The position numbers and the translations under genes were made by a program. Shown one piece after another: positions 3,246 through 62,123 of a stretch of 64,000 nt of DNA. How positions within the stretch are numbered: the first letter of the stretch is position 1; every line of letters begins with the position of its first letter. The stretch is from an uncultured Gemmatimonadaceae bacterium. GTDB lineage: Bacteria > Gemmatimonadota > Gemmatimonadetes > Gemmatimonadales > Gemmatimonadaceae. The notes beneath the pieces are model-generated. The model was given only the letters and a program-made list of their open reading frames with translations. It was not told where the DNA came from and searched no databases. The stretch lies in assembly GCA_963790305.1 (NCBI GenBank), contig CAWBOC010000002.1, positions 96,001 through 160,000 on the forward strand. Direction: 5' to 3'.

Positions 3246-3249
3246 GCGC

Positions 3250-5640
3250 CTAACGGAACGGGGGAAACGCGCCGGAGTTCAGCAGGCTCCAACGCTTGTC
3301 CGGCGCATTTCCAGCGTCCTCGTTCGCGATCGGCAACGTGAATAGGAAGCTGCTTCCCTCGCCAGGCTCGCTCTCGACCCAGATCTTTCCGCCGTGGGCT
3401 TCGACGATCCCCTTCGCGATCGCCAGGCCAAGACCAATGCCGCGGTGATCCCGCCGGTTCGCCTGCCAGAACTGTCCGAAGATGTGCGGGAGATGCTCGG
3501 CGGCGATTCCCGGGCCCGTATCACGAACCTCGAATTGCACCGCGCCCTCGGCAGGCCTGCAGCGCAGGACGACGCGGCCTCCTCTCGGTGTGAACTTGAT
3601 CGCGTTGCCGATCAAGTTCGAGAACACCTGCTGTACGCAATGGGGATCGGCCAACACCGGCTCGTCGTCGCCCGCTTCCATGGCGAGATCGACCGAGCTC
3701 GACGTCGCCAGCGATCGCAGCGTCTCGACCGCCTCGACGACGAGTGACTGGGAGGACATGCGACGTGTCTCGATGGCGAGGCGTCCGCTCTCCATGCGCT
3801 TCACATCGAGCAGGTCCTGCACGAGCCGGTTCATCCGTTCGCCAGCGCGTTGCACGATCGACGCGTGACGACGCGTCGGCGAGTCCGGCGGAGCGGAATC
3901 GAGAAGCAGCTCGGCCGCCATGAGCATCGTGTTGAGCGGATTGCGCAAGTCGTGCGCGACGACGCCGAGCATCTGGTCACGCGATCGCGTCGCCTGCTCG
4001 CTCTCGTGATAGAGCCGCGCATTCTCGACCGCGAGCGCGGCCCGCCGCGCGAGCTCCTCCGCCAGCTCGAGGTCCCGCTCATTGTACCGCCGGCTGTCGC
4101 CGGTCGTAAACCACACCACCGCCCCGATGATCTTGTCCGCCACCTTCAACGGGACTGCGGCAACTGATGTCGGCGCCAGGGCGAGAATGACGGCTTCATG
4201 CTCCTTATCGAGAGCATGCTGGGCAATGAGCGTGTTGTCGATCTCGGAGATGAGCGTGGGCTCTCCGTCCATCAGAGCGCGATGCAGATGGGGAACGAGT
4301 CGGCCCTCGCGTACCCACTTCGTGATGTGCTGCAGCAGCGGTTCCTTTTCTGGATCGGCGTGCGCGATGCCAAGGCGCTGCACCGCGCCGTTCCGGTCCA
4401 GGATGTCCACCGTGCAGAAGTCCGCGAACGTCGGCACGGCGAGCTGGGCCAGGTTGGCGAGCGTCGTGTGATAGTCGAACGACGCGCTGAGCAGCCGGCT
4501 CGCGTCAGCGAGAAATTCCGCGCGACGCTGCTCCTCCTCGGCGGCGGAGCGCCGAGTCTGCTCTTCGATGAGCTTGAGCGCGGTGAGCTCGGCCTCGTGC
4601 TGCTCGGTAATGTCCTGTCCCGCGCCAATGATCTGCGCCGGCAGGCCCGCGTCATCCAGGACGACGCGTCCCTCCACATTGAAGACCCGTATCTCATCCG
4701 GCGGACGGACGATACGATGCTTGACCTTGAAGCTCGTCCCTGCCGTAACGGCCGCGTCGATCGTCTCGCGGACCAGGTCGAAGTCATCGGGATGAACGCG
4801 CTGCAAGATCACTCCCGGAGAGAGCCTGGTGTCGGGCTCGAATCCGTATATCCGATACAGCTCGTCGGATCCACGGAGCTCGTTCGTGGCGATGTCCCAC
4901 ACGAAGCTCCCCACGTGTGCGATCGACTGCGCTTCGGCCAGCTGTGCCTCGCGGCTGCGGAGCTCCGCCTCCACGAGCTGCCGCTGGCGAACGTCCTCGC
5001 GCAGCGCCTCTTCCACACGATTGCGGTAGATCGCCGCGCCAAGCGTCGCGGCGGCGGCCCGCAGCGCCGAAATGGTGGCGCGCGCCCACTCGCGGTCGCT
5101 GTCATCGTGCGCGAAGCCGAGAAACCCCCACCAGGCTTCACCCACAAACACAGGGACCACGGCCACCGAGCGAAGCCCGAGTGACTCGAAGTAGGGGCGC
5201 TCGGACGGAGGGAACGAGGACACAGGACCGTCGAAGACGTCGCCATGCTCCAGACCGGCCCAGCGGGCCAGCCCCCTCGAAACCGGGTCGAACTCGGTCC
5301 GGGCGGGATCGTCGCCAAAGGGCTCGAAGCCTGGCGCGACCCACTCATGTTGCATTCGCATCCAGAGCGTGCCCTGGGCGTCCCGATCGGCGGCGAACAG
5401 GTAGACGCGGCTGACTTCCGCCGCGCTGCCCAGCCGGGAGAGCACGTCGCGGATGTCGCTATCCCAGTTGGCGGTTCCCAGGAATCGCGCGGCGGCGTAG
5501 GAGACCGCGTTGAGGATTGCTTCGCGTCGGCGAATCGCCGCCTCGAGACCGAGCACACGCGGGTCGTCCAACGCGCTGAGACTGGGCACCATGAACTCGC
5601 GGGTGACCGATCCCAGGGCGCGCTCCATACTCTCATTCAT
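3250..5640 (-). CDS. Soluble sensor histidine kinase (GAF-PAS-GAF-HisKA-HATPase)
   Basis: H-box [10 protein letters not shown]-box [29 protein letters not shown]; start uncertain. Confidence 0.9.
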
Positions 5641-5840
5641 GCGAGCCACTCGCGCGCGATGGAGCAGCTATCGCGGTCGCGAGCTCCGGTGAAGGAATCG
5701 GGCGCTGGACGTACTCACATAGTGTAGCGCTTTTCGGGCTCCGGCGCACGCCGAGAAACGGTCTTTTCCATGCAGCAATCGGGGGGTGGGTGGCATCCAA
5801 CAATTCAAACTTTCGTGGCGACTCCTTCGGGGAGGCTTCA

Positions 5841-7502: not shown

Positions 7503-9524
7503 TTACGGTGCCTCGGCGACCGCTTCCTTCGGCGTGTACCGCTCGAACCACGACCTGAGGTACAGCTGCGTCCTCATGAAGTTCGACGGCTTCGACGACG
7601 TTCCGTGGTACTCCTCGTTGAAGCGCACCATGGCCGTCGGCACCTTCCGGTACTTCAGCGCCTGATAGTACTCCTCGGTCTGCGAGATCGGCGTCCGCAG
7701 GTCGAGCACTCCCGTCATCAGCATGGTCGGCGTCTTCACGTTGCCGACGTACATGAGGGGGGAGAGCTTGAGGTAGAGCGACGGATCCTCCCACGGCGGA
7801 TTCGGGAAGCGGTTGTATCCCCAGAGGTTGATGTCCGTCGTGCCGGCGAAGCTGAGCCAGTTCGTCACCGGACAGTTGGCTGACGCCGCCGCGAAGCGAT
7901 CGGTGTGGCCGACGATCCACGAGGTAAGCACGCCGCCGCCGCTGCAGCCGTACACGAACATTTTCTTCGCGTCGATGTAGCCGCGGCCGAGCAGGGTGTC
8001 GACCGAGGCCATCAGATCGTCGTAGTCCTTGCTCGGATAGGCATGCTTGATCGCGTTACCGAATGCGCTCCCGTAGCCCGTGCTGCCCCTCGGATTCGTG
8101 TACAGCACGACGTAGCCGTTCGCCGCGTGCTCCTGCCATCCGAAGTTGAATCCGACGTTGTACATCGCGTGTGGTCCGCCATGAATCACCAGCATCATGG
8201 GGTATTTGCGGCGCGGATCGAAGTCGGGCGGCTTGACGACCCATCCCTGAATGCGATAGTCGTCCAGCGACTTGACCCACAGCTCCTCGACGGCGCCTAA
8301 CGTCTTGCCGGCGAGCACATCCTCGTTGACGCTCGTCAGGCGGCGAATCGCCCCGGGCGTCTTGAGCGCGAAGGTGACGACGTCGGTCGGGGCCTGGAAG
8401 CTGCTCTGCAGCCCGACCGCGGTCGCGCCGCGAATGTCGGTAATGGTGAGGAGGTGCGCTCCGGTCGTGATGGCGCGCGGCTCGCCACGGAGCGGCGCGA
8501 ACCAGAGGTTGCGCGAGCCCTTGTCCTCGACCGTGAAGTAGATCCCGGAGCCATCGCCCGCCCACTCGAGCTGCATTGGCGAGCGGTCGAGCGACGCGGT
8601 CAGCGCGCGCGGGCTCGAGCCGTCGGCGTTCATCACGTAGAGGGTTGCGTCACGCCAGGTGTCGTCCGTCCAGTCGAAGCCGGTGTAGGCGATCAGCCGT
8701 CCATCGGGGGAGACGACGGGGTCACCGTCGGGACCCTTCCGGGTGGTGAGCTGCTTCACCTCACCCGAGGCAACGTCCACCGCGTAGACTTCGCTCTCGT
8801 TGAACTGGTAGTCCGCGTCCGGATCGCGAAGCGCGCCGAACACGAGTCGGCGGCCGTCCGGGCTCCAGCGCCCCGGGCCGTGCTCGAAGTCCCCGCTCGT
8901 GAGCTGCCGAGGGGTTCCTCCATCAGCGGGGACGATGAAGAGGTGACGATATCCGTCGTCGACGTAGCCCTGCCTATCGAGCCGGTAGCGGAATCGAGTG
9001 ACGACCCGCGGCGGCTCCGTCCATTTCGCCCCCTTGGGCGCGGCGGGCATCCCAATGTCCCACTTCTCCTTGCTGAGCACGAGCATGCGGAACGCGAGGG
9101 ACTTCCCGTCGGGCGACCACTCGAGGTCGGCCGGCGACTCGGTCACGCGAGTGAGCTGCGATGTCCCGCCTTCGGCATCCATCCATCGAACGAACAGCTG
9201 CGTTCCGCTGGGCTCGCCCTTGGCGAGGTACGCGAGGCGGGTCCCATCGGGCGACCATTTGGGGCTCGATCCGTTGACGAGGAAGCGATTCCGCGACCCG
9301 TCGGCGTTCATGATCCACAGCGAGGCTTCCCACTTGTCGTTGAGCTTGTCGACCCAGCGGCGCGTGTAAATGACCTGACGCCCGTCGGGTGAGAGCTGTG
9401 GGTCTGCGACATCCTCCCACTCCAGATAGTCGGCGAGCGCGAGTCGCTTGGCCGGCGCTTGCGCGGCGAGGGAGGCGGCAACGACGAAGGACGCGAGGAA
9501 CGCGGTGAGACGAAGGGTAGGCAC
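7503..9524 (-). CDS. S9 family peptidase (dipeptidyl/acylaminoacyl peptidase) with PD40 propeller
   Basis: IHGGPH, NPRGSTGYG, GCSGGG nucleophile, DLRTP, EYHG; WSPDG repeats; GTG start inferred. Confidence 0.9.
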   Translation of the reverse strand: MPTLRLTAFLASFVVAASLAAQAPAKRLALADYLEWEDVADPQLSPDGRQVIYTRRWVDKLNDKWEASLWIMNADGSRNRFLVNGSSPKWSPDGTRLAYLAKGEPSGTQLFVRWMDAEGGTSQLTRVTESPADLEWSPDGKSLAFRMLVLSKEKWDIGMPAAPKGAKWTEPPRVVTRFRYRLDRQGYVDDGYRHLFIVPADGGTPRQLTSGDFEHGPGRWSPDGRRLVFGALRDPDADYQFNESEVYAVDVASGEVKQLTTRKGPDGDPVVSPDGRLIAYTGFDWTDDTWRDATLYVMNADGSSPRALTASLDRSPMQLEWAGDGSGIYFTVEDKGSRNLWFAPLRGEPRAITTGAHLLTITDIRGATAVGLQSSFQAPTDVVTFALKTPGAIRRLTSVNEDVLAGKTLGAVEELWVKSLDDYRIQGWVVKPPDFDPRRKYPMMLVIHGGPHAMYNVGFNFGWQEHAANGYVVLYTNPRGSTGYGSAFGNAIKHAYPSKDYDDLMASVDTLLGRGYIDAKKMFVYGCSGGGVLTSWIVGHTDRFAAASANCPVTNWLSFAGTTDINLWGYNRFPNPPWEDPSLYLKLSPLMYVGNVKTPTMLMTGVLDLRTPISQTEEYYQALKYRKVPTAMVRFNEEYHGTSSKPSNFMRTQLYLRSWFERYTPKEAVAEAP

Positions 9525-9587
9525 GGGAGCCCCGGGAGAAGGGAGGTATCTATTCTGGCTCACGGGCGCCATTCGCGCTACTCTCGA

Positions 9588-11015: not shown

Positions 11016-11044
11016 TCCCCACGTGCGCTGATTATCATCCAACC

Positions 11045-12049
11045 ATGCGTTTTCCATCGATTCTGCTGACCGCCGCGATCCTTTCGACCGCCGTCGGGCG
11101 AACCGTCGCGGCGCAGGACACGACCCGCGCGCCGCGCCCCGATAGCGCCACCGTAGACTCGTCCACGGCGACGGCCACCACTCCGGCCACGGTCAAGAAG
11201 CCGGTCGCGACCCGGCCGCCGAGGCCCGCCCCGGTGTGGCCTGTCAAAGGTCCGCTCCCGCTTCCGGGATCGATCCTCCCGCACTCGCGGATCGTCGCGT
11301 TCTACGGGAACCCGCTTTCGAAGCGAATGGGTATCCTCGGCGCCCTTCCGCCCGAGCGCATGCTCGCCAAGCTCGACACCGTGGTCGCGGAGTGGCGTGC
11401 CGCCGATTCCCTCACGGTGGTTCAGCCGGCGCTGCATCTGATCGCGGTCGTCGCGCAGGCGGCGGCCGGCCGGGACGGGAAGTATCGCGCGCGCATGGCC
11501 GACACCCTGATCGACCGCGTGCTGGGCTGGGCGCAGACACGAAACGCCATCGTCTTCCTCGACATCCAGGTCGGGAAGAGCACGCTGCAGGACGAGCTGC
11601 CCCGGTTCGCGAAGTACCTCGCCCTGCCTAACGTCCACCTGGGCATCGACCCCGAATTCTCGATGAAACGTGGCGGACGCCCGGGCGAGCGCGTGGGCAC
11701 GTACGACGCGGCGGACATCAACTACGCCACATCGTTCCTTGCCGGCCTCGTGACGCAGCACAACTTGCCGCCGAAGGTGTTCGTCGTGCACCGGTTCACG
11801 CGGCCCATGGTCACGAATACGAGCAAGATCACGCTCGACCCTCGCGTGCAGATCGTAATGCACATGGACGGATGGGGATGGCCGTCGCTGAAGAAGGAAT
11901 CCTACCGGCGCTACATCTACCAGGAGCCCGTGCAGTTCACGGGATTCAAGCTCTTCTACCACAACGACACGAAGGCCGGCTACCCGCTGATGACACCGGC
12001 GCAGGTTCTCCTGCTCGAGCCCAGGCCGGTGTACATCCAGTACCAGTAA
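11045..12049 (+). CDS. Conserved hypothetical exported protein
   Basis: Signal peptide, Pro/Thr linker, IVAFYGNP..MGILG, VHLGIDPEF, HMDGWG, GFKLFY. Confidence 0.7.
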   Translation: MRFPSILLTAAILSTAVGRTVAAQDTTRAPRPDSATVDSSTATATTPATVKKPVATRPPRPAPVWPVKGPLPLPGSILPHSRIVAFYGNPLSKRMGILGALPPERMLAKLDTVVAEWRAADSLTVVQPALHLIAVVAQAAAGRDGKYRARMADTLIDRVLGWAQTRNAIVFLDIQVGKSTLQDELPRFAKYLALPNVHLGIDPEFSMKRGGRPGERVGTYDAADINYATSFLAGLVTQHNLPPKVFVVHRFTRPMVTNTSKITLDPRVQIVMHMDGWGWPSLKKESYRRYIYQEPVQFTGFKLFYHNDTKAGYPLMTPAQVLLLEPRPVYIQYQ

Positions 12050-12070: not shown

Positions 12071-12565
12071 ATGCTCGTCCTGCTCCGCCACGTGTTCGCG
12101 ATTCTCGTGCTGCCCGTCGTAATGGCCATCGTCGTTCCCAGCTGGCTGCTCACGCGATACGCCCTGGTTGATTCGCGATGGAGCGACGGCTCAGCGCTGA
12201 TGTGGCCAATGCGCGGGCTCGGCGCGATCCTCTTGCTCGCCGGATTTCTGCTATTCGCCTGGTGCGTGAGCCTGTTCGCGCGCGTGGGACAGGGGACGTT
12301 GGCGCCGTGGGATCCCACGCGACGCCTCGTCGCGGTCGGTCCCTACCGGTACATTCGCAACCCGATGATCACCGGCGTCGCGACCGTGCTGGCGGGATGG
12401 GCGGTCTTCACCGGATCGTGGGTGCTCGCCCTCTGGTTCCTCACCTTCGTCGCGTTCAATTCGGTGTACTTCGTGCTCGTGGAAGAGCCCGGGCTCGAGC
12501 ACCGGTTTGGCGCGCCCTACCGCGAATACAAGGCGCAGGTTCCCCGGTGGATTCCTCGCCGTTAG
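12071..12565 (+). CDS. Isoprenylcysteine carboxyl methyltransferase/PEMT family membrane protein
   Basis: GQGTLAPWDP, LVAVGPYRYIRNPM, EEPGLEHRFG..Y..YKAQVPRWIPR. Confidence 0.85.
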   Translation: MLVLLRHVFAILVLPVVMAIVVPSWLLTRYALVDSRWSDGSALMWPMRGLGAILLLAGFLLFAWCVSLFARVGQGTLAPWDPTRRLVAVGPYRYIRNPMITGVATVLAGWAVFTGSWVLALWFLTFVAFNSVYFVLVEEPGLEHRFGAPYREYKAQVPRWIPRR

Positions 12566-13989
12566 GCTGACAGCCGCGCCTTCGGCTCCATGGCGATGGG
12601 GAACCGGAGGCGAAAGCGAGCACCGCCCTCATCCCGGTTCTCGGCAGTGACGGTTCCGCCGTGCTCGGTGATGATCTCGCGTGCGATCCAGAGGCCGAGT
12701 CCCGTGCCCTTGCCGACGGGCTTGGTGGTGAAGAAGCGGTCGAAGACACGTTCCGCGACGCCGGGCGCGAAGCCCGGGCCCGTGTCCTCGACGCAGAGCC
12801 ACACCTGCGTGGGATCGCCGCCCGTCGTGATGCGGACGAGACGCGGACCGCTGCGGCCTTCCATCGCCTGCACGGCATTGATCACGAGATTGAGCACGAT
12901 CTGCTCGAGCCTGCTCGCGAATCCCCGGATCGTCGGCAGTCCTTCGGGAAGCTCGGACTGTATGGAAACGCGCTGGTCGCGCAGCAGCGGGCGGAGCACG
13001 GCGAGCGCCTGCGTCGCGACCCGCGACAGCGAGATGGCGTCGTCTCGGGCCTCACGCGGATGCGACACACGGAGGAGATCGCGAACGACCTCGGCGGTCC
13101 GCCGCGATTCCTTGATGATGCCGTCCACGTCCTCCCGCTGTGAGGCGGTCAGCGGCGTCGTCTTCAGCATCTCGGCGAGCATCGAGATGGAGGCGAGCGG
13201 GTTGTTGACCTCGTGGACGACCGTCGCCGCGAGCGTTCCCACGGCCGCCAGCTTGTCAGCCTCCTGGAGGCGAACCGCCAGCGCGCGCTCCTCGGCGTCG
13301 CGCTGTACCTGCGCCGTCAGGGCGCGCCGCAGCGTCTGCGCCTGACGAGCCGTCGCGTAGGTCGCGGCGCCCCCGGCGACGGCGAGGAAGAACATTCGCG
13401 CGCCTTCGTCGAACAGCGACGATCCCGCCATGACCGGGGTGTCGAGCGGGTTGCCCACGAGGACCAGCCGGCCGGTCACGACGAGAAGCGTGACGAGCGC
13501 TCCGTACTCGGCGATCGCCAGCGTCGAGACGCCAGCCGCACGGCGCCAGGAATTGGTGAGCGACTGAGCGGCGATGATCAGGGTGTACGCGAGGAACATC
13601 GGCGACTTCACCGCCAGCTCCGCGCGGCCGAACACCCCGTAGCCGGCGAGCAGCACGGTGAGCGCTGTCGTGTCCACTATGGCGTTCAGCGTCGAGAGCC
13701 ACCGGGGCGCTTGTCCCTTTCGGTGAAACACCAGCTGCTGGCCCGCCGTCCACAGCAGCATCGGGACGAGCACCGCCGCATTGACGCGGTTCAGGGACTG
13801 AGTTAGCCGAGTGGCGTACAGCGCGCTGGCGACGGCGAGCAGCACCAACACCACCGCGCGCACGCCATTGAGCACCCGCTCGCTGCGTACCCGCTCGACG
13901 TCGAGCAGGTGCGTGGTGAGCTGCGCGATAAGTGACGTGGGCGTGTCGGCAGCGGAGGGCTGCTGCCCGAATGCGGGTGGCGGGACCAT
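12562..13989 (-). CDS. Membrane sensor histidine kinase (NtrB-like)
   Basis: ~6 TM segments; VVHEVNNPL, NLVINAVQAM, DTGPG, FFTTKPVGKGTGLGL. Confidence 0.88.
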   Translation of the reverse strand: MVPPPAFGQQPSAADTPTSLIAQLTTHLLDVERVRSERVLNGVRAVVLVLLAVASALYATRLTQSLNRVNAAVLVPMLLWTAGQQLVFHRKGQAPRWLSTLNAIVDTTALTVLLAGYGVFGRAELAVKSPMFLAYTLIIAAQSLTNSWRRAAGVSTLAIAEYGALVTLLVVTGRLVLVGNPLDTPVMAGSSLFDEGARMFFLAVAGGAATYATARQAQTLRRALTAQVQRDAEERALAVRLQEADKLAAVGTLAATVVHEVNNPLASISMLAEMLKTTPLTASQREDVDGIIKESRRTAEVVRDLLRVSHPREARDDAISLSRVATQALAVLRPLLRDQRVSIQSELPEGLPTIRGFASRLEQIVLNLVINAVQAMEGRSGPRLVRITTGGDPTQVWLCVEDTGPGFAPGVAERVFDRFFTTKPVGKGTGLGLWIAREIITEHGGTVTAENRDEGGARFRLRFPIAMEPKARLSA

Positions 13990-17663: not shown

Positions 17664-18074
17664 ATGGGGAAGATCGGACGAACCATTCTCGCGGTGCTGG
17701 CCGGCGCCATCGTGTGGGCGGTGCTGTGGGTCGGCGGAACGCAGGCCGCGCAACGGGCCTTTCCGGCCCTGCTCGCTGTGGGACAGCCCGTCACCAATGT
17801 CGGCGCGCTCGTCGGGCTCATCCTCTATAGCGTCGCGTTGTCCGTTCTCGCCGGGTACGTGACGGCAACGGTTGCGTCGAGGGAGCCCCTGCCGGCCGTG
17901 AGAGCGCTGGCGATTGTCCAGCTCGTGCTTGGCCTCGGGTTCGAGGTCTCGGCGTGGAGTCTCACGCCGGTGTGGTACCACCTCGTGTTCCTGGCGCTGA
18001 TCGTCCCGGCGACGATCTACGGAGGCCGGCTCCGCGTTAGGCGCGGCGGGGCTGCGGCGCTGCTGCCCGTGTAA
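17664..18074 (+). CDS. Hypothetical 4-TM membrane protein
   Basis: GAGG RBS, hydrophobic helices, PVWYHLVFLALIVP. Confidence 0.7.
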   Translation: MGKIGRTILAVLAGAIVWAVLWVGGTQAAQRAFPALLAVGQPVTNVGALVGLILYSVALSVLAGYVTATVASREPLPAVRALAIVQLVLGLGFEVSAWSLTPVWYHLVFLALIVPATIYGGRLRVRRGGAAALLPV

Positions 18075-32698: not shown

Positions 32699-32699
32699 C

Positions 32700-47030: not shown

Positions 47031-48774
47031 TTATTCGGGCCCTACCACCTGGGGATCTGCCGTGAGGAGCTTGTCGATCTCCTCCGACGGCACCGGCTTC
47101 GAGAACAAATAGCCCTGCGCGTACTCACACCCGATCTCGCGAAGCGTCGCGAGCTGGGACTCAGTCTCGACCCCCTCGGCTACCGCCGCCGACGCCGATG
47201 TTGCTCGCCAGCGCCTGCACGGTGCGAACGAGCTGCAGATGCGTCGGCTCGGTCTGCATCCGCATGACGAACGAGCGGTCGATCTTGATCGCGTCCAGCG
47301 GCCACTGATGCAGCGAGCCTAACGACGAGTAGCCGGTGCCGAAGTCGTCGAGGTAGATTCGGACCCCGAGCTGACGGAGCGCCGCCAGCATCTCGAGGGT
47401 GCGCGCCGAGTCCTCGATCGCGATGCTCTCCGTGATCTCGAGCCGGAGCAGCTTGGGATCGATGCCGGTCGCCTGGATCGTCTCCTGCACCCGGCTGACG
47501 AACTCGAGCTGCGTAAATTCGCGCACCGAGAGATTCACGCTGATGCTGAGCGGGGATCGCGAACTGAACCGCTCCTGCCACGCCCGAAGCTGGCGGCAGG
47601 CCTGCACCGAGAACGTACGACCCGATGGGAATGATCAACCCGGTCTCTTCAGCCAGCGGGATGAACTCGAGCGGCGGAATGACTCGCTGTCGAGCCTGCC
47701 AGCGCACCAGCGCCTCGAGCTCCGTGATGCGCCCCGACCGGAGATCGACCATTGGCTGGTAGTAGACGACGAACTCGCGCCGATCCACAGCGCGGTGGAG
47801 ATCGGTCTCCGCCTTGAGACGCGTGAGCGCACGCGCCTGCATCACCCGGTCGAACATCTCGAACCGACTGCGACCAGCGCGCTTCGCACGAGACAGCGCA
47901 ATGTCGGCGCACTGGAGCAGCTCCGCGGACCCTTGCGACGTGCCAGCGAGCTCGTCACCACCCCCATGCTTGCGGAGGGAAAGATCTCGGCCGATTCCCC
48001 GTCATCAGCACGCAAGAGGACCGGAGCGGCGAGCGCCTCACGAATACGCTCGGTCACACGCCCCGCGTCTGTCTCGTCGGCGAGGCTCTCGAGCAGGATC
48101 GCAAAGTCGTCACCGCCCAGGCGCGCGACCGTGTCCTCCCCGCGCACGCAGGTTCCCAGCCGGCGGGCCATCTCGATCAGCAGCTCGTCGCCCGCGCCAT
48201 GACCCAGGCTGTCATTCACGGCCTTGAACCCGTCGAGGTCGAGCACCACGACCGCGAAACGAAAGTCCTTGTGGCGACGGCCGCGGGTCACCGCGTGAGC
48301 GAGCCGATCGAGGAAGAGCGAGCGATTCGGCAGGCCGGTCAGCGCGTCGTGAAGCGCGTGACGACGAAGGTGGATCTCGGTCGAAACCCAGTCAGCGAGA
48401 TCCGTGATCGCCGCCGACGTCTCGATCGGACCAGTGTCGTGGTTCGTTGTCGAGCACCCAGAGTGTGCCCGCTGCGCGCAACAGCGTTGCCGACGCTCAC
48501 CGCGACGTAGGCACTGCGCCGGCACCGGTGGCTGCGGTGGCGTGGTCGACGACCGGCCCGCATCGCGCGTCGTGCGACGAGCAGATCGGCTCCGCGGGCG
48601 CGCGTCGCCTCCGTGAGCAGGTATTGAGAGCGCGGGTTTGCCAAAGGCGGCCCCCACGATTCGCGTGAGCCGCTCGACCGACTCGCTAGGCAGGAGGGCG
48701 AGCAGGGATCGGTTCGGTGTGTGCGTGCGACTTTCCTCTTGCAATGGGACGTGTCGGGAGGGCCACCAGGCCAT
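47031..48774 (-). CDS. GGDEF-EAL protein, fragmented by multiple frameshifts
   Basis: HDALTGLPNR, DLDGFKAVNDSLGHGAGD, RLGGDDF; LEALVRW, LEITES, DDFGTGYSS, AEGVET..QGYLFSKP. Confidence 0.8.
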
Positions 48775-48878: not shown

Positions 48879-49590
48879 CTAGACCGAGCAGGCTCTCACG
48901 AACGCGGTCACCGCCTCGGGCCGGAGCCGCCGCCCGCGTCCTCGTCATGCTTGAAGAAGACGTACGCCTCGCTCCATGTCTGGCCGCTCACGCATTTGGC
49001 CCACTCGCCTAACGCCCCGTCAGTGTAGTCCGGGCGGTGGAGCCGCAAGTATCCCCACGACGCCGTCGCGTGCACGGGACACTTGAAGTCCTCCTGCTCG
49101 GCGAGACACATCGCGACGTCGTGCTCGCGCAGCGCGGCGAACACGTCGTCGTCGAACCAGCTCTCGTGGCGGAACTCGATGCGTGAACCGGCGATCGGAG
49201 GGGAGCAGCCCGAGGAAGCCGCGCAGGCGCGCCGTGTCCTTCTGCATGTTCGGCGGAAGCTGGAACAGAATCGGGTCCCAGCCGATCGCCGAGCGTCGCG
49301 GTATTTCGGAGCAGGTAATCGACGGTGTCAGCGCAGTCGGGCTTGAGCCGCGAGTAGTGCGTGATGCGCTGGCTCGCCTTGATCGAGAAGGTGAACTGCT
49401 CGGGAACCTGCGCCGCCCACTCCCGCAACACGTTCTCCTTCGGCAGCCGGTAGAACGTGTTGTTGATCTCGACGGTCGGAAACTTCGAGGCGTAGTAGCC
49501 CAGCCACCCGTCGCTCTTCAGGTCGTCCGGATAAAACGAGCCCTTCCACTCCTTGAACGCATAGCCGCTCGTCCCCGCGAGCAGCTTCAT
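48879..49590 (-). CDS. DUF72 (YecE-like) protein (frameshifts)
   Basis: AGTSGYAFKEWKGSFYP, TVEINNTFYRLP, FSIKASQRITH, YLRLH, YVFFKH; ATGA-coupled to ku. Confidence 0.85.
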
Positions 49591-50489: not shown

Positions 50490-53069
50490 ACTAATTACTA
50501 ACACCCCGCCCCCCGACGACAGCCTCGGCACGTACCGGGCGAAGCGCTCTCCCGACAGCACCACGGAGCCGATGGGGACGGTATCACCCGTCCTCGGCCG
50601 GCTGTTCGTGGTGCACAAGCACGCCGCCCGGCAGCTCCACTTCGACCTGCGGCTCGAGATGGAGGGGGTTCTTCGCTCGTGGGCGGTGCCGAAGGGCCCG
50701 TCCTACGATCAAAACGACAAGCGGCTCGCCGTGCGGGTGGAGGACCACCCCATCGAGTACGGGGACTTCGAGGGAATGATCCCCAAGGGCAACTACGGCG
50801 CGGGCGCCGTCATCGTGTGGGATCGTGGCGAATGGGTGCCGCTCGAGGATTGGCGCGAGGGCCTGGAGAAGGGGAAGCTCCTCTTCGAGCTCAAGGGCTA
50901 CAAGCTCAAGGGCAAGTGGACGCTGGTGAAGATCAAGAAGAGCGAGCGCGACTGGCTGCTGATCAAGGAGCGCGACGCCTTCATGAAGTCGCCGGGTGAC
51001 CAGTTCCCCGAGCAGTCGGTGCTCTCCGGCGTCACCGTCGAGGAAATGCTGGCGGGAGAAACGCCGGGCTCGAGGCTGCGCGCAGCGGCGGAAAAGGCTG
51101 GCGCCGCGAAGTCCCGCGTCGACCCACGTGCCGCGCCGCCGATGCTCGCCGAAACGGCGGACGAACGCATTCACGCGGGACGACTGGATCTTCGAGCTCA
51201 AGCTCGACGGATACCGTCTCATCGCCAGCAAGACCAAGGGCGAAGCGCTCCTTCTCACCCGCAACGGGAACGACTACACGGCGGTTTTTCCCGAGATCGC
51301 GCGTGCGATCAAGGCGCTGCCGATCGATGAGTTCATCATCGACGGCGAAGTGGTGTGTCTCGATGGCGACGGCAAGCCGAGCTTCGCCCGCCTCCAGCGG
51401 CGTGGACGGCTGCACGTCCGACATCGACATTCGCCGCGCGGCGGTCGAGCTTCCCGCGACGTTCTACGCCTTCGACTTGCTCGCGGTCGATGATCTCGAT
51501 CTGCGCGCCGCTCCCGCTCGTCGCGCGCAAGGAGCTCCTGGCGCAGGCGGTGCCCAAGCTGGGCCCGGTGCGCCTGCTCGAGCACATCGAGCGTGAAGGG
51601 GAAGCGTTTCTCGAGCAGGTCGAGAAGCTCGGGCTCGAGGGGATCATCGCCAAGAAGGCGGATGCGCCCTATCGGCCGGGGCGCACGGCGCAGTGGCTCA
51701 AGATCAAGGCAGAGGCAACCGGCGACTTCGTGATCGTCGGGTTCACGCAGCCCAAAGGCTCGCGCAGCAGCCTGGGTGCGTTGCAGCTCGGCGACTTCGT
51801 GAATGGCGAGCTGGTGTATGCCGGCCGGGTCGGGACGGGATTCAACGATGAGCTGCTTCGCGAGCTCGGCGAGCTGCTCGCTCCGATCGTTCGCCGCGAC
51901 TCCGCCCTGTCGAGGTCCGGTGATCGGCGGCGCTAATCGACGCGACGCGATTCCGGAGATCAAGACGACGACGTGGGTGGAGCCCATGTACGTGTGCGAA
52001 GTACAGTTCCGCGAGTGGACGCCCGACGGGCTGCTGCGTCATGCGGCGTATCTGCGCGCGCGGTCGGACAAGCGCCCGCAGGACTGTGTGCGCCAGGGTG
52101 TGGTGCACGAAGAGGATGGTTCACCGACCGCCGCGGTGGTGAGCGAGCCACCGCCCTCGCCTCCGAAGGAGCCGGTCAAGAAGACGATCAGCTTCTCGAA
52201 CCTGAAGAAGATCTACTGGCCTGCCGAGCGGTACACGAAGGGCGACATGATCGAGTACTATCGCGCCGTGTCGCGCTGGCTGCTGCCGTATCTTCGCAAT
52301 CGCCCGGTGGTGATGACGCGCTTTCCGGACGGGATCGACGGGAAGTCGTTCTATCAAAAGGATGCGCCCGAGTTCGCGCCCGAGTGGATGCGCACGGTGC
52401 GGATCTGGAGCGAGGATACGCAGCGCGAGATTCGATACTTCGTCTGCGACGACGAAGAATCGTTGCTGTACGTGGCCAATCTGGGGACGATTCCGCTGCA
52501 CATCTGGGCGAGTCGCGTCGGCTCGCTCGAGCTGTGCGACTGGTGCGTGCTCGACCTGGATCCCAAGGAGGCGCCCTTTGCGGATGTGATCCGCTGCGCC
52601 CAGGCTGCTGCGACAGTTATGTCAAGCGGTCGGATTGTCGAGCTACATCAAGACGACGGGGAAAACCGGGCTGCACATCATGCTCCCCCTCGGGCGCCAG
52701 TGCACCTACGCGCAGTCGCGCACGTTAGGCGAGTTGCTCGCGCGCGTCGTGCTTCGGGAGCTGAAGGACATCGCGACGATCACGCGGCACGTCACCAAGC
52801 GCGGCGACAAGGTGTACCTCGATTATCTGCAGAACCGGCACGGGCAGACGATCGTGGCCCCGTTCAGCGTCAGGCCCTTGCCCGGCGCGACGGTGTCGAT
52901 GCCGTTGCTTTGGGACGAGGTCAACGATTCACTCGATCCGCGCGCGTTCACGATCAAGACCGCGATCGAGCGCATGGAGCGCCTGACGAGCGACCCGGTG
53001 GCGCCGGTCCTCGAGGAGAAGCCCGATCTGGGGCAGGTACTCGAGAGGCTCGCGGGTCTGATGGAATAG
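50490..53069 (+). CDS. ligD: NHEJ DNA ligase D (phosphoesterase-ligase-polymerase), about 5 frameshifts
   Basis: VVHKHAARQLHFDLRLE, SWAVPKGPS; FELKLDGYR, EGIIAKK, WLKIK; RFPDGI, FYQK, DLDP, KTTGKTGLH, YLDYLQN; start uncertain. Confidence 0.9.
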
Positions 53070-57660: not shown

Positions 57661-60099
57661 TCACTCGTACCTCAACGCCACCGCCGGCTCGACCTTCGCC
57701 GCCCGGCGCGCCGGGAGGTAGGACGCCACCAGTCCGACCGTCAGCAACACGAATGAGATCCCGATGTAGCTCATGGGATCGGTCGGGCTCACGCCGAAGA
57801 GCACCCCCGCGAGGACGCGTGTGAGCGCGAAGGCTCCCACCAGGCCGATCAGCAGACCCGTTACCGTCAGGACCACACCCTTCCGCACGACCAGGGACAG
57901 CACGTCCCGCAGCTGAGCGCCGAGTGCGACGCGAACGCCGATTTCATGCGTCCGCTGGCTTACGGCGTAGGACATCACGCCGAACACACCAACCGCCGCG
58001 AGCAGGAGGGCGATGATTCCAAAGCTCGCGAACAACATTCCGAACAGGCGCTTGTCCCAGTACGACAGCTGGGCGAGCTGGGTCATCGTCTGCACTTCGA
58101 ACAACGGGAGCGCCGGGTCCACCTCGGCAACCGCGCGCCGGAGGAGAGGTGCGAAGGCCGCCGGGTCACCGCGCACGCGCGCGACGAGCGACATCGTACG
58201 CCACGGTGAGTAGGCATACGGCACGTAGAACTGATTCTCGACCGGAATGTCGATGTCGCGAAGCTTCACCGTCGGAACGACGCCAACGACGGTGAGCCAT
58301 TGCGACTCTTCCGCCAGGCCGGTCGAGAAGCGCCTGCCTAACGCCTCCTGGTTCGGCCAGAAGCGATCGGCCATGGCCTGATTGATGATCGCGACGCGCG
58401 CGGTGCTGTCGAAGACCTCGGCGTCGGTGAACGCCCGTCCGCGTGGCTCGCGCATGCCGAACGCACGGAAATAGTCCCGTGTGATCGGGCGCCAGCTGGC
58501 GAGCGGATGCTCTCCCGGCGCCATGGGCTGCCCTTCGATCTCGAAGGACGAGCCACTGTTATTGCCTGACAACGGCAGGTAGTTGACGGCCGCGGCGGCT
58601 TCGACGCCGGGCGTATTGGCGAGACGCTCGAGGGCGGCCCGGAAGAAGGCGACGCGATTCGCCGGGTCGGGGAAGCGGTCGGTCGAGAGATAGAGACGCG
58701 TCGTAACCTGGGTGCTCGTGTCGAAGCCCGGCTCGAGGTTCCGCAGGTAGAGGAAGCTCCGCATCATCAGCGTCGCCCCGATCAGCAGCACCAGCGCAAG
58801 CGCGGTCTCGAGCACGACGAGGCCGCTGCGCATCCGGCCACGCCGCCCGCCGACGCTCGTACCGCGACCACCATCCTTGAGCGTCTCGTTGAGGTTCGGC
58901 CGTGACGATTCGAGGGCGGGCACGATGCCGAAGATGAGTCCGGTCGCGAGCGCGGTGATGGCGGTGAAGATGAGCACCCCTCGGTCGATCTTGAATTCCA
59001 TCCAGTTGGGCAGCTCCTCGGGGATCTGCGACAACACCAGGTCGTTGCCCCACACGGCGAGCAGAATCCCGACGCCGCCACCGATGACGCCGATGAGCAG
59101 GCTCTCGGTGAGCAGCTGCCGTATGATGCGTCCGCGCTTCGCACCCAATGCCGTGCGAATGGCGATCTCTTTCTGACGGGCGGTGGCACGAGCGAGCAGC
59201 AGATTCGCAACGTTGGCGCACGCGATCAGGAGCACGAACACGACTGCGCCCATCATCACCGTCACGACGAGCTTCACTTCCCCGGGAAGGAGGTGCTCGC
59301 GAATGGGGATCGCGCCGAAGCCGTGCCCGGCGTGATCGGCGGGCGATTCTTCGCCGACCCGGGCCGCGACCGCCATCAGCGCCGCGTTCGCCTGCTCCAT
59401 GGAAACGCCGTTCTTGAGACGCGCGACTCCTTCGAGATAGTGCGAGCCTCGCGGCTCGTTCGCGCGGTCCAGTGCGAGCGGGAGGAAGAGATCCTCCTCG
59501 TCGAACCACCCAAAGCGGGATGGCATGACCCCAATGATTTCCGTCGGTTGGCCATTGAGGCGAACACTTCGGCCGATGACCCCTGAATCCAGTGCGTAGC
59601 GGCTTCGCCAGAGCTCGTATCCCAGCATAACGACCCGCGGACCGCCTGGTCGGTCTTCCTCCTCGCGGAAGTGTCGGCCCAGTGCCGGACTGATGCCAAG
59701 CATGGGGAACATGTTGGCGCTTACGGTTGCCGCCTCGATCCCTTCTGCCTCGGTGGTGGTGCCACCACTCGCCGCCATTTCTTCGTAGTTGACGAAGCGG
59801 TCGGTGTAGAGGGCCACATCGTCGAAGACGTTGCGTGTCTGCTCGCGGATGTCGAGGTAGTCGAGATAGGACATTTCGCTGTCGACCCAGCCTTCCTTGG
59901 GATAGCTCTCGCCAACCGCCACGATCGCTTCCGGATCGGTGTAGGGCAGCGGACGTACGAGCATGGCATGGACGCAACTGTAGATGGTGCTGTTGATGCC
60001 GATACCGAGCGCCAGGCAGAAGATCGCGATGAAGGTGAAGCTCCGGTCACGCAGGAGAGCCCGCGCGGCGTAGCGGAGATCGCGCGACAGCGAAGTCAC
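57661..60099 (-). CDS. Duplicated MacB/FtsX-type ABC permease (ADOP-like)
   Basis: RDLRYAARAL, LLIACANVANLLLARA..RQKEIAIR.ALGA, QRTHEIGVR.ALGA, PARRAAKVEP..ALRYE. Confidence 0.92.
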   Translation of the reverse strand: MTSLSRDLRYAARALLRDRSFTFIAIFCLALGIGINSTIYSCVHAMLVRPLPYTDPEAIVAVGESYPKEGWVDSEMSYLDYLDIREQTRNVFDDVALYTDRFVNYEEMAASGGTTTEAEGIEAATVSANMFPMLGISPALGRHFREEEDRPGGPRVVMLGYELWRSRYALDSGVIGRSVRLNGQPTEIIGVMPSRFGWFDEEDLFLPLALDRANEPRGSHYLEGVARLKNGVSMEQANAALMAVAARVGEESPADHAGHGFGAIPIREHLLPGEVKLVVTVMMGAVVFVLLIACANVANLLLARATARQKEIAIRTALGAKRGRIIRQLLTESLLIGVIGGGVGILLAVWGNDLVLSQIPEELPNWMEFKIDRGVLIFTAITALATGLIFGIVPALESSRPNLNETLKDGGRGTSVGGRRGRMRSGLVVLETALALVLLIGATLMMRSFLYLRNLEPGFDTSTQVTTRLYLSTDRFPDPANRVAFFRAALERLANTPGVEAAAAVNYLPLSGNNSGSSFEIEGQPMAPGEHPLASWRPITRDYFRAFGMREPRGRAFTDAEVFDSTARVAIINQAMADRFWPNQEALGRRFSTGLAEESQWLTVVGVVPTVKLRDIDIPVENQFYVPYAYSPWRTMSLVARVRGDPAAFAPLLRRAVAEVDPALPLFEVQTMTQLAQLSYWDKRLFGMLFASFGIIALLLAAVGVFGVMSYAVSQRTHEIGVRVALGAQLRDVLSLVVRKGVVLTVTGLLIGLVGAFALTRVLAGVLFGVSPTDPMSYIGISFVLLTVGLVASYLPARRAAKVEPAVALRYE

Positions 60100-60833
60100 T
60101 GACTCACCTCATCGACGACGCGTCCGTCGAACAGGCTCACCGTGCGGTCCGCGTGCCGCGCATACCGGGGATCATGCGTCACCATGATGATCGTTGCGCC
60201 ATCGCGGTGGAGCTCCTGGAGGAGCCGCATCACCGATTCTCCGTTGACGGAGTCGAGGTTTCCCGTCGGCTCGTCCGCGAGCAGGAGCAGCGGCGAGCCG
60301 GCCACCGCGCGGGCGACGGCAACGCGCTGCTGCTGACCGCCAGACAGCTGCGCCGGGTAGTGCTTCATCCGGTGCAGCATCCCGACGCGATCGAGCGCCT
60401 CCTGCACACGACGCTTCCGCTCGTCGGCGGACATGTCGCGATAGGTGAGTGGCAGCTCGACGTTCTCGTAGACGGTGAGATCACCGATCAGGTTGAACGC
60501 CTGAAAGATGAATCCGATCTGCCGATTCCTCACGCGCGCGCGCTCGGCCGGCGTGAGGTTCGCCACCGGCTTGTCGTCGAGCATGTACTGCCCGTCGGTC
60601 GGCGCATCGAGCAACCCCAGAATGGAGAGCAGCGTCGTCTTGCCGCACCCGGACGGACCGGCAACGGCGACGTACTCGCCGCGCCGGATGTCGAGATGGA
60701 TTCCCGAGAGTGCGTGCGTCTCCACCTCATCGGTGAGGAACACCTTCCGGATGTTGTCGAGACGAATGAGTGGGGAGGCGCCATCGTTCGGCGAGCGAGA
60801 GTAGCTGCCAGGGGCTTCGGCGAGAGAAGACAT
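60096..60833 (-). CDS. ABC transporter ATP-binding protein (LolD/MacB-like)
   Basis: GPSGCGKT, LSGGQQQRVA, ADEPTGNLD, VTHD. Confidence 0.95.
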   Translation of the reverse strand: MSSLAEAPGSYSRSPNDGASPLIRLDNIRKVFLTDEVETHALSGIHLDIRRGEYVAVAGPSGCGKTTLLSILGLLDAPTDGQYMLDDKPVANLTPAERARVRNRQIGFIFQAFNLIGDLTVYENVELPLTYRDMSADERKRRVQEALDRVGMLHRMKHYPAQLSGGQQQRVAVARAVAGSPLLLLADEPTGNLDSVNGESVMRLLQELHRDGATIIMVTHDPRYARHADRTVSLFDGRVVDEVSQ

Positions 60834-60875
60834 TGGACGTCGACGAGGAGTGAGGGAGAAGCGAGGAAAGGGGGA

Positions 60876-62123
60876 TCAGTTCCGAAGCTTGAGACGCGGG
60901 GCGTCGCCGTACTGACTGAGATCCGAGAGGATGACGCGATCGCCCTCCTGGAGCCCGTCGAGAATCTCGATGGCGTTCACCGACCCTCGGCCGAATTGCA
61001 CGCGAGTGCGCGTGGCGGCGCGGCCGTCGGGCTCGAGGCGGAAGACCTCGATCGTGGTGTTCGCTTGACCGTATGCCGGGCGCCCGACGAAGAGCGCGTT
61101 AGGCAGCCGCTCGATCTCGATGGTCCCGTCGACGGTGAGATCGGGGCGGGCACCGGGCGGGAGCGCGCCATCGAGCGCGATGTCCACGCTCACCGTCCCG
61201 TTGCGTGCCGCGGGATCGATGCGCGTGACACGCCCGGCAATGACACCGTTGCGCGTGTCGATCGACGCGCGCTGCCCAATGGCGACGTCCTTCGCTTGCG
61301 TCTCGGGAACGTTGAGCACCGCCTTGAGCCGGCCGGGCTCGACGACCTTCGCCAACGTCGTCCCCGACATCGCCCACTGGCCGACCTCGAGCGGAAGCTC
61401 CTGGAGCACGCCGTCCGCGCCGGCCGTGACGCGCATGGAGGCGACCTGCTGGCGACGGAACGCGAGGATCTCGCGCAGGCGGCCGATCTGTGAGCGCTGC
61501 ACGTTGAGCTGTGCGACGATCGCGTCCGTGTGCACGCGAAGGCGCTCCTGCTCGATCCGGTATCGTGTGTCCAGCTCCTCCTGTTTGTCCTTCGCGCGCT
61601 GGAGGTCCGTGGGGGCGATGAGCTTCTTGGCGGCGAGCCCGTCACCGACTTCGACCCCGCGCTTGGCCTCGAGGTATTCCGACCGAACCGTCGCGATCAC
61701 CCCTTCCTGGTTCAGGCGCTGCGTCTCGAGCGATGCGCGGAGGTTGACCAGGGTCGCTTCGGCCTCGGTGAGCTGCCGTTGCGCCTCGAGCGCCTGGAGC
61801 TCGACATCGGGGTTCGAAAGCTCGACCAGAACCGTCGCCGCCGAGACCTTTTCGCCCGGCTCGACGTGCTTGCGCTCGACGCGGCCAGCAGTGACGGCGG
61901 CGATCCACCGGATCTGCTCAGGTACGAGCGTGCCGGGGCCGTGCACTTCGCGCAGCATTTCACCGCGTGCGACGGTATCGATCCACAGGGTCGACGCCTC
62001 GACGGTCGGCACGGCGCGGTCCAGCTGCGACAGGGCGACGGTGACGAGCACGAGCCCAAGGAGCGCGCCTCCGGCGTACAGATAGCGCCGAGTGTTGGTT
62101 TTTGGTGCGCGGGGAATGTCCAA
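60876..62123 (-). CDS. Efflux periplasmic adaptor (HlyD family)
   Basis: MDIPR, N-terminal TM, GPGTLVPE, coiled coil, ARPDLTVDG, GLQEGDRVILSD. Confidence 0.88.
   Translation of the reverse strand: MDIPRAPKTNTRRYLYAGGALLGLVLVTVALSQLDRAVPTVEASTLWIDTVARGEMLREVHGPGTLVPEQIRWIAAVTAGRVERKHVEPGEKVSAATVLVELSNPDVELQALEAQRQLTEAEATLVNLRASLETQRLNQEGVIATVRSEYLEAKRGVEVGDGLAAKKLIAPTDLQRAKDKQEELDTRYRIEQERLRVHTDAIVAQLNVQRSQIGRLREILAFRRQQVASMRVTAGADGVLQELPLEVGQWAMSGTTLAKVVEPGRLKAVLNVPETQAKDVAIGQRASIDTRNGVIAGRVTRIDPAARNGTVSVDIALDGALPPGARPDLTVDGTIEIERLPNALFVGRPAYGQANTTIEVFRLEPDGRAATRTRVQFGRGSVNAIEILDGLQEGDRVILSDLSQYGDAPRLKLRN

Follow-up and report, generated by a model that had tools for sequence, protein, structure and literature searches.

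The window analysed here is a stretch of 64,000 nucleotides from an uncultured Gemmatimonadaceae bacterium (contig CAWBOC010000002.1, positions 96,001 to 160,000), with a GC content of 66.2 %. It contains exactly 31 matches to the heptamer CGTTAGG or its reverse complement CCTAACG, 16 on the plus strand and 15 on the minus strand (Table 1). The genes which carry these copies are unrelated, encoding kinases, peptidases, Big-domain, helicase, TPR-CHAT, ABC permease and HlyD-family proteins. All 31 copies had been listed in an earlier sequence-only reading of the window, and all were found where that reading had placed them and none elsewhere. It had expected about 7 copies by assuming 68 % GC; 100 dinucleotide-preserving shuffles of the window gave a mean of 2.82 copies (standard deviation 1.71, largest 8), and none of the 100 reached 31. 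The word, (C)GTTAGG(C) when its preferred outer bases are included, was confirmed as a real, asymmetric and solitary signal at the DNA level which overrides codon use. It is enriched against the codon bias, its sites are conserved, its copies repel each other at short range, it has no polarity, and it is distributed patchily among related genomes. It is explained neither by protein coding nor by repeats, attC sites or mobile elements.

The genome from which the window comes, hereafter called G000, has 4,313,030 bp (4.31 Mb) in 13 contigs and contains 1229 copies of CGTTAGG on both strands (601 + 628), present on all 13 contigs at 0.19-0.43 per kb. The sequence logo of these copies has a 3' C in 70 % and no conservation beyond one base on either flank, and the unit is therefore (C)GTTAGG(C) and no part of a longer repeat. 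The heptamer noticed earlier was real, but the reading had missed the 3' C which makes it an 8-mer, as well as the match to the R box of integron attC sites and the uneven occurrence in related genomes. The 8-mer, CGTTAGGC, is found in 855 copies compared with 44-68 expected from Markov models of orders 1-3. A longer repeat, a miniature inverted-repeat transposable element or a repetitive extragenic palindromic element is excluded by the logos of G000 and of G016, the relative richest in the word, in both of which the flanks are unconserved past one base per side. Under a maximal-order model the pentamer TTAGG is the top outlier in G000, and a G precedes 1547 of its 1741 copies. End variants differing by one base are also enriched, CGTTAGGT with 194 copies against 29 expected and TGTTAGGC with 115 against 17. 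The neighbour CGTCAGGC is abundant as well, with 826 copies compared with 311-402 expected, or with 562 under the maximal-order model. Further over-used words in G000, AGAGGCGCTA/TAGCGCCTCT (166 against 53), TCAGGAGTCA and AATGCGGAA/TTCCGCATT, probably represent other repeat families or neighbours of the word. A literature search found nothing in print on this word and no paper which combined 'Gemmatimonadetes' with 'uptake sequence'; among the matches listed, those to CGTTAGGC were primers.

Genes of G000 were called crudely by us from open reading frames (ORFs) and a codon log-odds score, not taken from an annotation; the 3397 genes cover 81 % of the genome. When synonymous codons were permuted within each called gene (30 shuffles), CGTTAGG ranked first among the sense-strand 7-mers, with 488 copies against a mean of 32.1 (maximum 46), and GTTAGGC second, with 494 against 29.4. 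The reverse complements were enriched 5-6 fold (CCTAACG 384 against 77.1, GCCTAAC 330 against 54.5). The count lies far above the codon-shuffled expectation, and the claim of enrichment beyond codon use therefore stands.

The word is read in several frames, and all frames named in the sequence-only reading were recovered both in the window and in the genome. In G000, 407 copies are read as nCG TTA GGn, 81 as nnC GTT AGG, 196 as CCT AAC G and 184 as nnC CTA ACG, while 357 lie in intergenic DNA or at a gene edge. The window contains 14 copies read as x-Leu-Gly with TTA, two as GTT AGG, two as CCT AAC G and four as CTA ACG; three more supply a TAG stop codon, and six are intergenic or in uncalled DNA. 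The leucine codons involved are indeed rare, as had been suspected, with TTA at 0.9 and CTA at 1.14 per 1000 codons in 678 long ORFs of G000. Of 1061 TTA codons, 407 (38 %) are in the context CG-TTA-GG, the enrichment predicted by the earlier reading, and 538 (51 %) are in G-TTA-GG; for CTA, 185 of 1799 codons are in C-CTA-ACG. The word spells 407 of 3028 [SPTA]-L-G tripeptides (13 %) and 199 of 847 P-N-[VADEG] tripeptides (23 %). The ratios of forward to reverse tripeptides are mostly 1.1-1.6 (seven of nine), the exceptions being PLG (0.80) and PNE (0.79). Stop codons inside the word account for 52 of 885 TAG and 44 of 459 TAA stops. Half of the TTA codons and a share of the TAG and TAA stops in rich genomes are owed to the word, which matters for models of codon usage, for gene finders and whenever genes are designed to be expressed in these organisms.

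Table 1 Copies of CGTTAGG/CCTAACG in the window, with the gene concerned, the reading of the copy and its state in the related genome G008
Positions	Strand	Gene	Reading of the copy	State in G008
3249..3255	-	histidine kinase, 3250-5649(-)	CGTTAGG(C), read CGT TAG G, TAG stop	
8296..8302	-	peptidase S9, 7503-9872(-)	ACG TTA GGC (T-L-G)	
11627..11633	-	10892-12049(+)	antisense; gene reads CCT AAC GTC (P-N-V)	
12560..12566	+	PEMT-like, 12071-12565(+)	CGT TAG G, TAG stop	
18035..18041	+	17178-18074(+)	CGC GTT AGG (R-V-R)	
18811..18817	+	Big/beta-helix, 18288-21533(+)	CCG TTA GGT (P-L-G)	position kept
21439..21445	+	Big/beta-helix, 18288-21533(+)	ACG TTA GGC (T-L-G)	position kept
22242..22248	+		intergenic	position kept
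24344..24350	+	24124-24768(+)	TCG TTA GGG (S-L-G)	position kept
25066..25072	+	UvrD-type helicase/DEDD-exonuclease, 24807-27752(+)	GCG TTA GGC (A-L-G)	position kept
26218..26224	+	helicase/DEDD-exonuclease, 24807-27752(+)	TCG TTA GGC (S-L-G)	CGCTCGG (CTC Leu)
26521..26527	+	helicase/DEDD-exonuclease, 24807-27752(+)	CCG TTA GGG (P-L-G)	not present
28406..28412	+	28322-28795(-)	antisense; gene reads GGC CTA ACG (G-L-T)	position kept
29633..29639	-		stretch without called gene	
31905..31911	-	PD40-repeat, 30233-31963(-)	GCG TTA GGT (A-L-G)	
32237..32243	+	32189-33217(-)	antisense; gene reads AAC CTA ACG (N-L-T)	
33241..33247	-		intergenic	
34251..34257	+	33522-35468(-)	antisense; gene reads AGC CTA ACG (S-L-T)	
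34644..34650	-	33522-35468(-)	ATC GTT AGG (I-V-R)	
35810..35816	+		intergenic	
36025..36031	-	Big_1, 36026-37243(-)	CGT TAG G, TAG stop	
37871..37877	-		stretch without called gene	
37988..37994	-		stretch without called gene	
41481..41487	-	TPR-CHAT, 40013-43222(-)	GCG TTA GGC (A-L-G)	
42531..42537	-	TPR-CHAT, 40013-43222(-)	GCG TTA GGC (A-L-G)	
44051..44057	+	sigma-70-like, 43622-44290(-)	antisense; gene reads CAC CTA ACG (H-L-T)	
47318..47324	-	short EAL-domain ORF, 47161-47607(-)	TCG TTA GGC (S-L-G)	
49008..49014	-	short DUF72 ORF, 48908-49144(-)	GCG TTA GGC (A-L-G)	
52723..52729	+	short LigD Prim-Pol ORF, 52635-53069(+)	ACG TTA GGC (T-L-G)	
58337..58343	-	MacB/FtsX permease, 57661-60099(-)	GCG TTA GGC (A-L-G)	
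61097..61103	+	HlyD-family, 60876-62123(-)	antisense; gene reads CCT AAC GCG (P-N-A)	

The orientation of the copies in G000 was compared with the GC skew as a check for replichore bias. There were 247 forward and 242 reverse copies in bins of positive skew, and 339 and 372 in bins of negative skew (Spearman rho 0.02). This lack of replication polarity speaks against Chi and against the FtsK-orienting polar sequences (KOPS), and it bears out the earlier description of the word as non-palindromic and unpolarised. The copies are placed evenly along genes, are roughly Poisson distributed per gene, and are only slightly denser in intergenic DNA (0.32-0.41 per kb) than in genic DNA.

Spacing was compared with 300 deals in which the same number of copies was distributed among sites encodable in the same amino-acid context and random intergenic positions. 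Gaps of less than 100 bp made up 0.6 % of the gaps in G000 compared with 2.8 % in the deals, those of less than 200 bp 2.1 % compared with 5.6 %, those of less than 400 bp 5.3 % compared with 10.8 % (none of 300 deals as low), and those of less than 800 bp 14.8 % compared with 20.4 %; at each of these distances the observed share was below the lowest of the deals. Copies avoid each other within approximately 800 bp. The coefficient of variation (CV) of the spacing over the whole of G000 was 1.02, and there is therefore no long-range regularity, while a 112-kb sample of G016 had a CV of 0.73. In the alignment of G000 with G008 (238 kb, 84 % identity), 60 of 85 sites were conserved, compared with 34 % of all aligned 7-mers, and 14 of the 25 non-conserved sites differed by a single transition (CGTCAGG or CGTTGGG). 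Densities per kb in the rich genome G298 were 0.66 on the replicon of 5.3 Mb, 0.83 and 0.57 on the two of about 1 Mb, and 0.85 on a 21-kb contig.

The abundance of the 8-mer was surveyed in a sample of 301 genomes of the phylum, which included the families f1-f3 (197 genomes) and nine other families (103 genomes). Throughout the analysis G015, G079, G198 and G118, which are flagged unpublished, contribute to the denominators only. Twelve genomes had at least 450 copies, all within two families of one order, and none of the 103 genomes of the nine other families had more than 70. Across the order the number varied from 6 to 6360 copies per genome, with intermediate genomes at 84-337. All nine genomes of the same genus as G000 had 382-1006 copies, compared with 200-366 of the reversed control word, G012 had 605, G030, from a third family of the same order, had 345, and G016 had 6360 in about 5.1 Mb. 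The sample of G016 contained 185 copies of CGTTAGG in 112 kb, where 7 were expected, with the logo (C)(T)C-GTTAGG-C.

The effect of the word on a conserved gene was seen in rpoB. In a codon alignment, rich genomes had GCG TTA GGC and TCG TTA GGC where the poor genome G287 had GCG CTC GGC and TCG CTC GGA, with identical residues, the general pattern being nCG TTA GGC in rich genomes and nCG CTC GGN in G287. In G016 the word was created also by amino acid changes in RpoB, Lys to Arg (GTT AGG) and Asp to Asn (CCT AAC). The hexamer occurred 15 times in rpoB of G016, 10 times in G235, nine times in G291 and four times in G000, but not in G287, where the gene is cut off at residue 741, nor in any of the 12 poor genomes. 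With such natural on/off contrasts between close relatives (G235/G291 against G287, and G298 against G089), phylogenetic profiling could be used to find the reader gene, and the gradation in density, from 6 to 6360 copies in a genome, would likewise be of experimental use.

GTTRRRY/GTTAGGC is the classical integron core site. In the poor genomes G021, G019, G029 and G020 and in the rich genome G298, the 8-mer marks same-strand arrays with a spacing of about 500-700 bp. These arrays are true attC sites, with an R'' box GCCTAAC, complementary L boxes and an R' box (C)GTTAGGC, which in all five genomes is CGTTAGGC. It is unlikely that the coincidence of the word with the R box is due to chance, and the identity of the two may connect cassette traffic with a genome-wide signal. 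G000 itself encodes an intact IntI (449 bits, C9:694984-695919), followed by a cassette array in which 13 attC sites (C9 ~696-724 kb) use GCATAAC...GTTATGC and not the word. The scattered variant CGTTATGC, with 253 copies in G000 against 35 expected, is the R' box of these 13 sites. An attC-like partner box 30-170 nt upstream was found for only 2-6 of the 1105 copies of GTTAGGC in G000, so the copies were rejected as attC pairs, and the scattered copies had no L boxes, no hairpin and no same-strand arrays. Of the candidate sites in the G298 array, 6 of 16 on one strand and 3 of 11 on the other had GTTAGAC as R' box, as did 2 of 7 in G019, but among the scattered copies of G000 this variant shows no enrichment (CGTTAGAC, 10 copies where 33 were expected).

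Machinery searches covered 31 genomes for IntI and Vsr, and either 30 hand-picked genomes or five genomes for other families. IntI was above cut-off in 22 of the 31 genomes, including G000, and 11 of the IntI-positive genomes were poor in the word; it was present in all five further genomes (G235, G291, G298, G160 and G287) and was not found in the rich genome G012. In G016 it lies in three consecutive frameshifted pieces (G016:C182:835-1781). The IntI tree contained no rich clade, and no stand-alone integrase N-terminal domain specific to rich genomes was found. Since its presence, intactness and clade do not track richness, IntI was rejected as the driver. The possibility that rich genomes shift the R box of their attC sites to avoid cross-talk was also rejected, as it fits G000 (GTTATGC) but not G298, which is rich and keeps CGTTAGGC. 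The integron of G000, outside the window at C9 ~694.9-724 kb, appears as a sedentary chromosomal integron with intI upstream of, and on the same strand as, an array of about 28 kb. At 133-140 nt its attC sites are long; they have the form GCATAAC...GCGTTATGC, and further copies were seen on C8 (three), C3 (one) and C5 (one).

Vsr was found in three of 31 genomes, all of them poor, and in none of the rich genomes. Among the five genomes, the C5 methyltransferase family PF00145 was found only in the poor G287. A search for PF01555 found nothing in the rich genomes G000 and G235, and PF02384 scored only 22.9 bits in G000. G000, G235 and the poor G287 have PF02086, which was not found in the richest genome, G016, or in G010. 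Of these four families none was common to G000, G016 and G235. A conserved ORF of approximately 1030-1140 amino acids (G000:C7:234198-234407 and orthologues) had a weak N6_Mtase match of 21-26 bits in five of five genomes, both rich and poor. MutS was present in 30 of 30 genomes, and its loss was rejected as a cause. ComEC was found in five of five genomes, a PilQ-like secretin in five of five (below cut-off) and PilM in 30 of 30, and ComP_DUS (PF16732) had no match in any genome, control genomes included.

RecC and alpha-type AddB were found in none of five genomes, and PDDEXK_1 had no match in G000. An AddAB-like PDDEXK_1 pair was present in 41 of the 197 genomes of families f1-f3 but in 95 of the 103 genomes of the nine other families, a contrast which suggests that the order has lost the classical end-resection enzyme on a large scale. 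In the 30 hand-picked genomes the pair occurred in 3 of 16 rich or intermediate genomes compared with 8 of 14 poor ones, and within the order in one of the 12 genomes with at least 450 copies (G213) compared with about 38 of 181 poor ones. The absence of AddAB was rejected as the key factor, because the contrast within the order is weak in the 301-genome sample and confounded by phylogeny, and it is kept as a lead only. The AddAB locus was examined for a replacement gene, and no synteny with G000 was found.

The window itself encodes, at 24807-27752(+), a 981-amino-acid UvrD/PcrA-type helicase with an inserted DEDD (DnaQ-like) 3'-5' exonuclease, for which no NCBIfam model was above cut-off. 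It may be an analogue of AddAB. Full-length orthologues are found in 17 of 30 relatives, nearly complementary to the PDDEXK_1 pair: exactly one of the two is present in 24 of 30 genomes, both in G213 and G030, and neither in G125, G160, G298 and G037. The orthologue of G115 has two in-frame stops (G115:C6:13593-16499). As reader of the word the helicase-exonuclease was rejected, being absent from the rich genomes G298, G160 and G125 and present in five poor ones.

Few genomic words are hyper-abundant, and there is debate over their mechanisms; to our knowledge, a mechanism has been established only for the uptake signal sequences (USS) and DNA uptake sequences (DUS). The present word adds a third case, an asymmetric one, from a soil phylum which has been little studied. 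Among the known kinds it appears closest to the uptake sequences and to the highly iterated palindrome HIP1 of cyanobacteria. Like DUS and USS it is short and non-palindromic, lies on both strands without polarity in several frames and in spacers, reaches about 0.2 to more than 1 copy per kb, and affects peptides. It also shares with them enriched one-off variants and a spacing more even than chance, as far as the accessible parts of PMC2817400 and PMC1939737 describe these, the latter source reporting both the even spacing of USS and the enriched variants of uptake sequences. It differs in having few terminator pairs and in belonging to a different phylum. HIP1 (GCGATCGC) and the present word are both hyper-abundant octamers found inside genes in all frames, at sites conserved between genomes, with some lineages lacking the word (PMC5861425 and PMC13756078, accessible parts). 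HIP1, long without an assigned function, has recently been proposed as an uptake signal tied to transformation (PMC13756078, accessible part). It is a palindrome recognised by two methyltransferases, whereas the present word is asymmetric and no methyltransferase family was common to the rich genomes.

It is tentatively proposed, with somewhat less than even confidence, that the word is an uptake-sequence-like self-tag spread by molecular drive linked to DNA exchange. A force acting on the DNA itself would write the word throughout the genome and maintain it. A putative protein of a DNA-exchange or recombination pathway would prefer DNA which bears the word, and alleles with the word would therefore replace alleles without it. 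Such drive would shift leucine codons from CTC to TTA in x-Leu-Gly and Pro-Asn to CCT AAC, would recruit TAG and TAA stops, and in the densest genomes would force conservative amino acid changes. One copy per few hundred bases would suffice, and a second copy nearby would therefore gain little. The same word has been switched on or off several times. Three points are inferred here, namely recognition of the word by a protein, a link between this recognition and DNA exchange, and maintenance by drive in place of selection on single sites. In favour of this are the strength of the enrichment, its effect at the DNA level, a density in the range of DUS and USS, the maintenance of sites, the repulsion between copies, which are solitary and unpolarised, and the enriched end variants, together with the presence of the word on every sampled replicon of G298 and the precedent of HIP1. 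ComEC, the PilQ-like secretin (below cut-off) and PilM are encoded too, though equally in poor genomes.

Several observations weigh against the uptake-like reading. DUS and USS are family-wide, whereas the present word is patchy among genera and even within one genus, where G235 (3896 copies) and G291 (4141) contrast with G287 (66), and there was no sign of a dialect. A 101-kb sample of G287 contained no other scattered word; a candidate dialect there was rejected, as only local (GAAAGCA)n tandem arrays were seen. These intergenic GAAAGCA arrays, with inverted pairs, lie at approximately 600-700 and 5700-5800 of L041 (G287:C5) and 12650-13280 of L042 (G287:C6). In an RpoB tree with 26 genomes, at least six changes are required to account for the rich state, and branches with good support force five of these; as few changes sufficed in 22 of 500 shuffles of the labels. 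ComEC, the PilQ-like secretin and PilM are present in rich and poor genomes alike, a ComEA-type region, which 27 of 30 genomes have, was not detected in G000, and no reader protein emerged from the family searches run. Inverted, terminator-like pairs are few, with 17 pairs closer than 100 bp in the whole of G000. Uptake sequences are rare in accessory genes, according to the accessible part of PMC2817400, but the present word was not depleted there by three proxies, all crude: its density per kb by quartile of codon score was 0.265, 0.262, 0.269 and 0.206, in DNA of G008 which could not be aligned to G000 it was 0.389 per kb compared with 0.294 in aligned DNA, and the integron cassette array carries six copies in 28.2 kb. 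The commonest frame of the word uses the rarest leucine codon, while the frames of USS follow preferred codons (PMC2817400, accessible part). Moreover, the identity with the R box is left unexplained by the uptake-like reading and by the other readings tried.

An extended version would include this identity. An undescribed exchange or recombination system of Gemmatimonadales, with the integron R box as its recognition word and a reader favouring both DNA of kin and cassettes, is conceivable but unlikely. Each cassette would then carry two copies of the word, and where the reader was active, drive would write the word throughout the genome. If the reader were mobile or easily switched, this would explain the at least five gains or losses of the same word. 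Such a system would be a self-tag system outside Proteobacteria and Cyanobacteria, and it would for the first time connect the recombination sites of integrons functionally with a signal spread over the whole genome.

The self-tag has to be weighed against other forces which could place a word at this density. A Chi-like or self-marking signal, taming a nuclease or helicase of end-processing or defence on resident DNA so that every replicon needs a minimum density, is rather unlikely, although it would fit much of the distribution. Density is uniform on the sampled G298 replicons, including the 21-kb contig, in cassettes, in non-alignable DNA and in genes of low codon score, copies repel at short range, and sites are conserved. 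Like the Chi of RecBCD or AddAB (5-8 letters), the word is asymmetric, occurs about once per 5 kb in G000 and could mark self DNA, and it is confined to an order which largely lost the AddAB-like pair, the pair being scarce also among the genomes with at least 450 copies and the rich or intermediate hand-picked genomes. Within the order the AddAB contrast is weak and confounded by phylogeny, and it was overstated by the 30-genome set. The word lacks the replication polarity of Chi, and with no RecC or alpha-type AddB in the five genomes and no PDDEXK_1 in G000 the searches provide no candidate Chi-like machine; the helicase-exonuclease of the window is not required, since G298, G160 and G125 are rich without it. 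Enrichment against codon use and the residue changes in RpoB also exceed what is known for Chi of E. coli, where site-by-site selection is not known to override codons or change residues so strongly. A bias of mutation or repair, of the type of very short patch (VSP) repair or as considered early for HIP1, would convert near-cognate words to CGTTAGGC with no reader function. The single transitions at 14 of the 25 non-conserved sites, the abundance of CGTCAGGC and the uniform density in all kinds of DNA are consistent with this, but such a bias is quite unlikely. Vsr, the partner of Dcm in VSP repair, was found only in poor genomes among the 31 searched, as was PF00145 among five, and the rich and poor rpoB genes differ by two-step changes, CTC against TTA. 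A transition-specific depletion of neighbours was not seen in G000, G>A and G>T being equally low at positions 2 and 7; the apparent neighbour depletion in the comparison with shuffled codons is an artefact, since TTA codons which occur nowhere but inside the word are moved elsewhere by the shuffling. Repulsion at short range and the doubled conservation of sites are not expected from independent mutational input, and the same argument against a mutational origin has been made for HIP1 (PMC5861425, accessible part). Of the three mechanisms offered in the sequence-only reading, namely uptake, nucleoid-protein binding and enrichment driven by methylation or repair, the last was the least supported, as neither Vsr nor a shared methyltransferase family was found in the rich genomes searched and the copies repel each other.

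The integron itself could provide the reader, if genomic R boxes were recognised by IntI or a related protein, for instance for landing, titration or regulation. In relatives, real attC sites have the word as their R' box, paired with R'' GCCTAAC, IntI is widespread, the variant CGTTATGC matches the R' box of G000, and the occurrence of one word in at least five separate lineages fits a reader already present across the order. These likenesses do not extend to the scattered copies, which, unlike the attC sites of relatives that begin with GCCTAAC and end with (C)GTTAGGC, have no L boxes, partner box, hairpin or array, and among which GTTAGAC, common in attC, is not enriched. IntI does not track richness, with 11 positive genomes poor, G012 rich with no IntI and G016 frameshifted, and the tree and the search for N-terminal domains gave nothing specific to rich genomes. 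The published consensus for insertion at attG sites is only GWT (bioRxiv 10.1101/2022.09.11.507474, accessible part), and there is no nameable mechanism by which IntI would spread a word, making this role improbable. Binding of a nucleoid-structuring protein, with regular spacing held by selection, would agree with the repulsion, the CV of 0.73 in the G016 sample, the conservation of sites and the lack of polarity, and a role in chromosome structure has been proposed for HIP1 (PMC5861425, accessible part). Such binding is very doubtful, as the CV of 1.02 in G000 shows no long-range regularity, a range of 6 to 6360 copies among close relatives is hard to square with an essential architectural role, and in our estimation the benefit per site would be too small to change residues of RpoB. 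An origin of the copies as remnants or scars left by cassettes and attC sites of integrons is suggested by the identity of the word with the R' box, but is effectively refuted by the unconserved flanks, by the more than 99 % of copies with no partner box and by the in-frame synonymous copies inside conserved genes such as rpoB. Precise recombination of attC by IntI, moreover, leaves no scar.

Three short ORFs in the window which carry copies of the word match their Pfam domains only in part: the ORF at 47161-47607 matches EAL from position 70 to 204 of 236, that at 48908-49144 matches DUF72 from 128 to 204 of 217, and that at 52635-53069 matches LigD Prim-Pol from 135 to 253 of 254. They may be gene fragments, or the starts of the ORFs may be misplaced.

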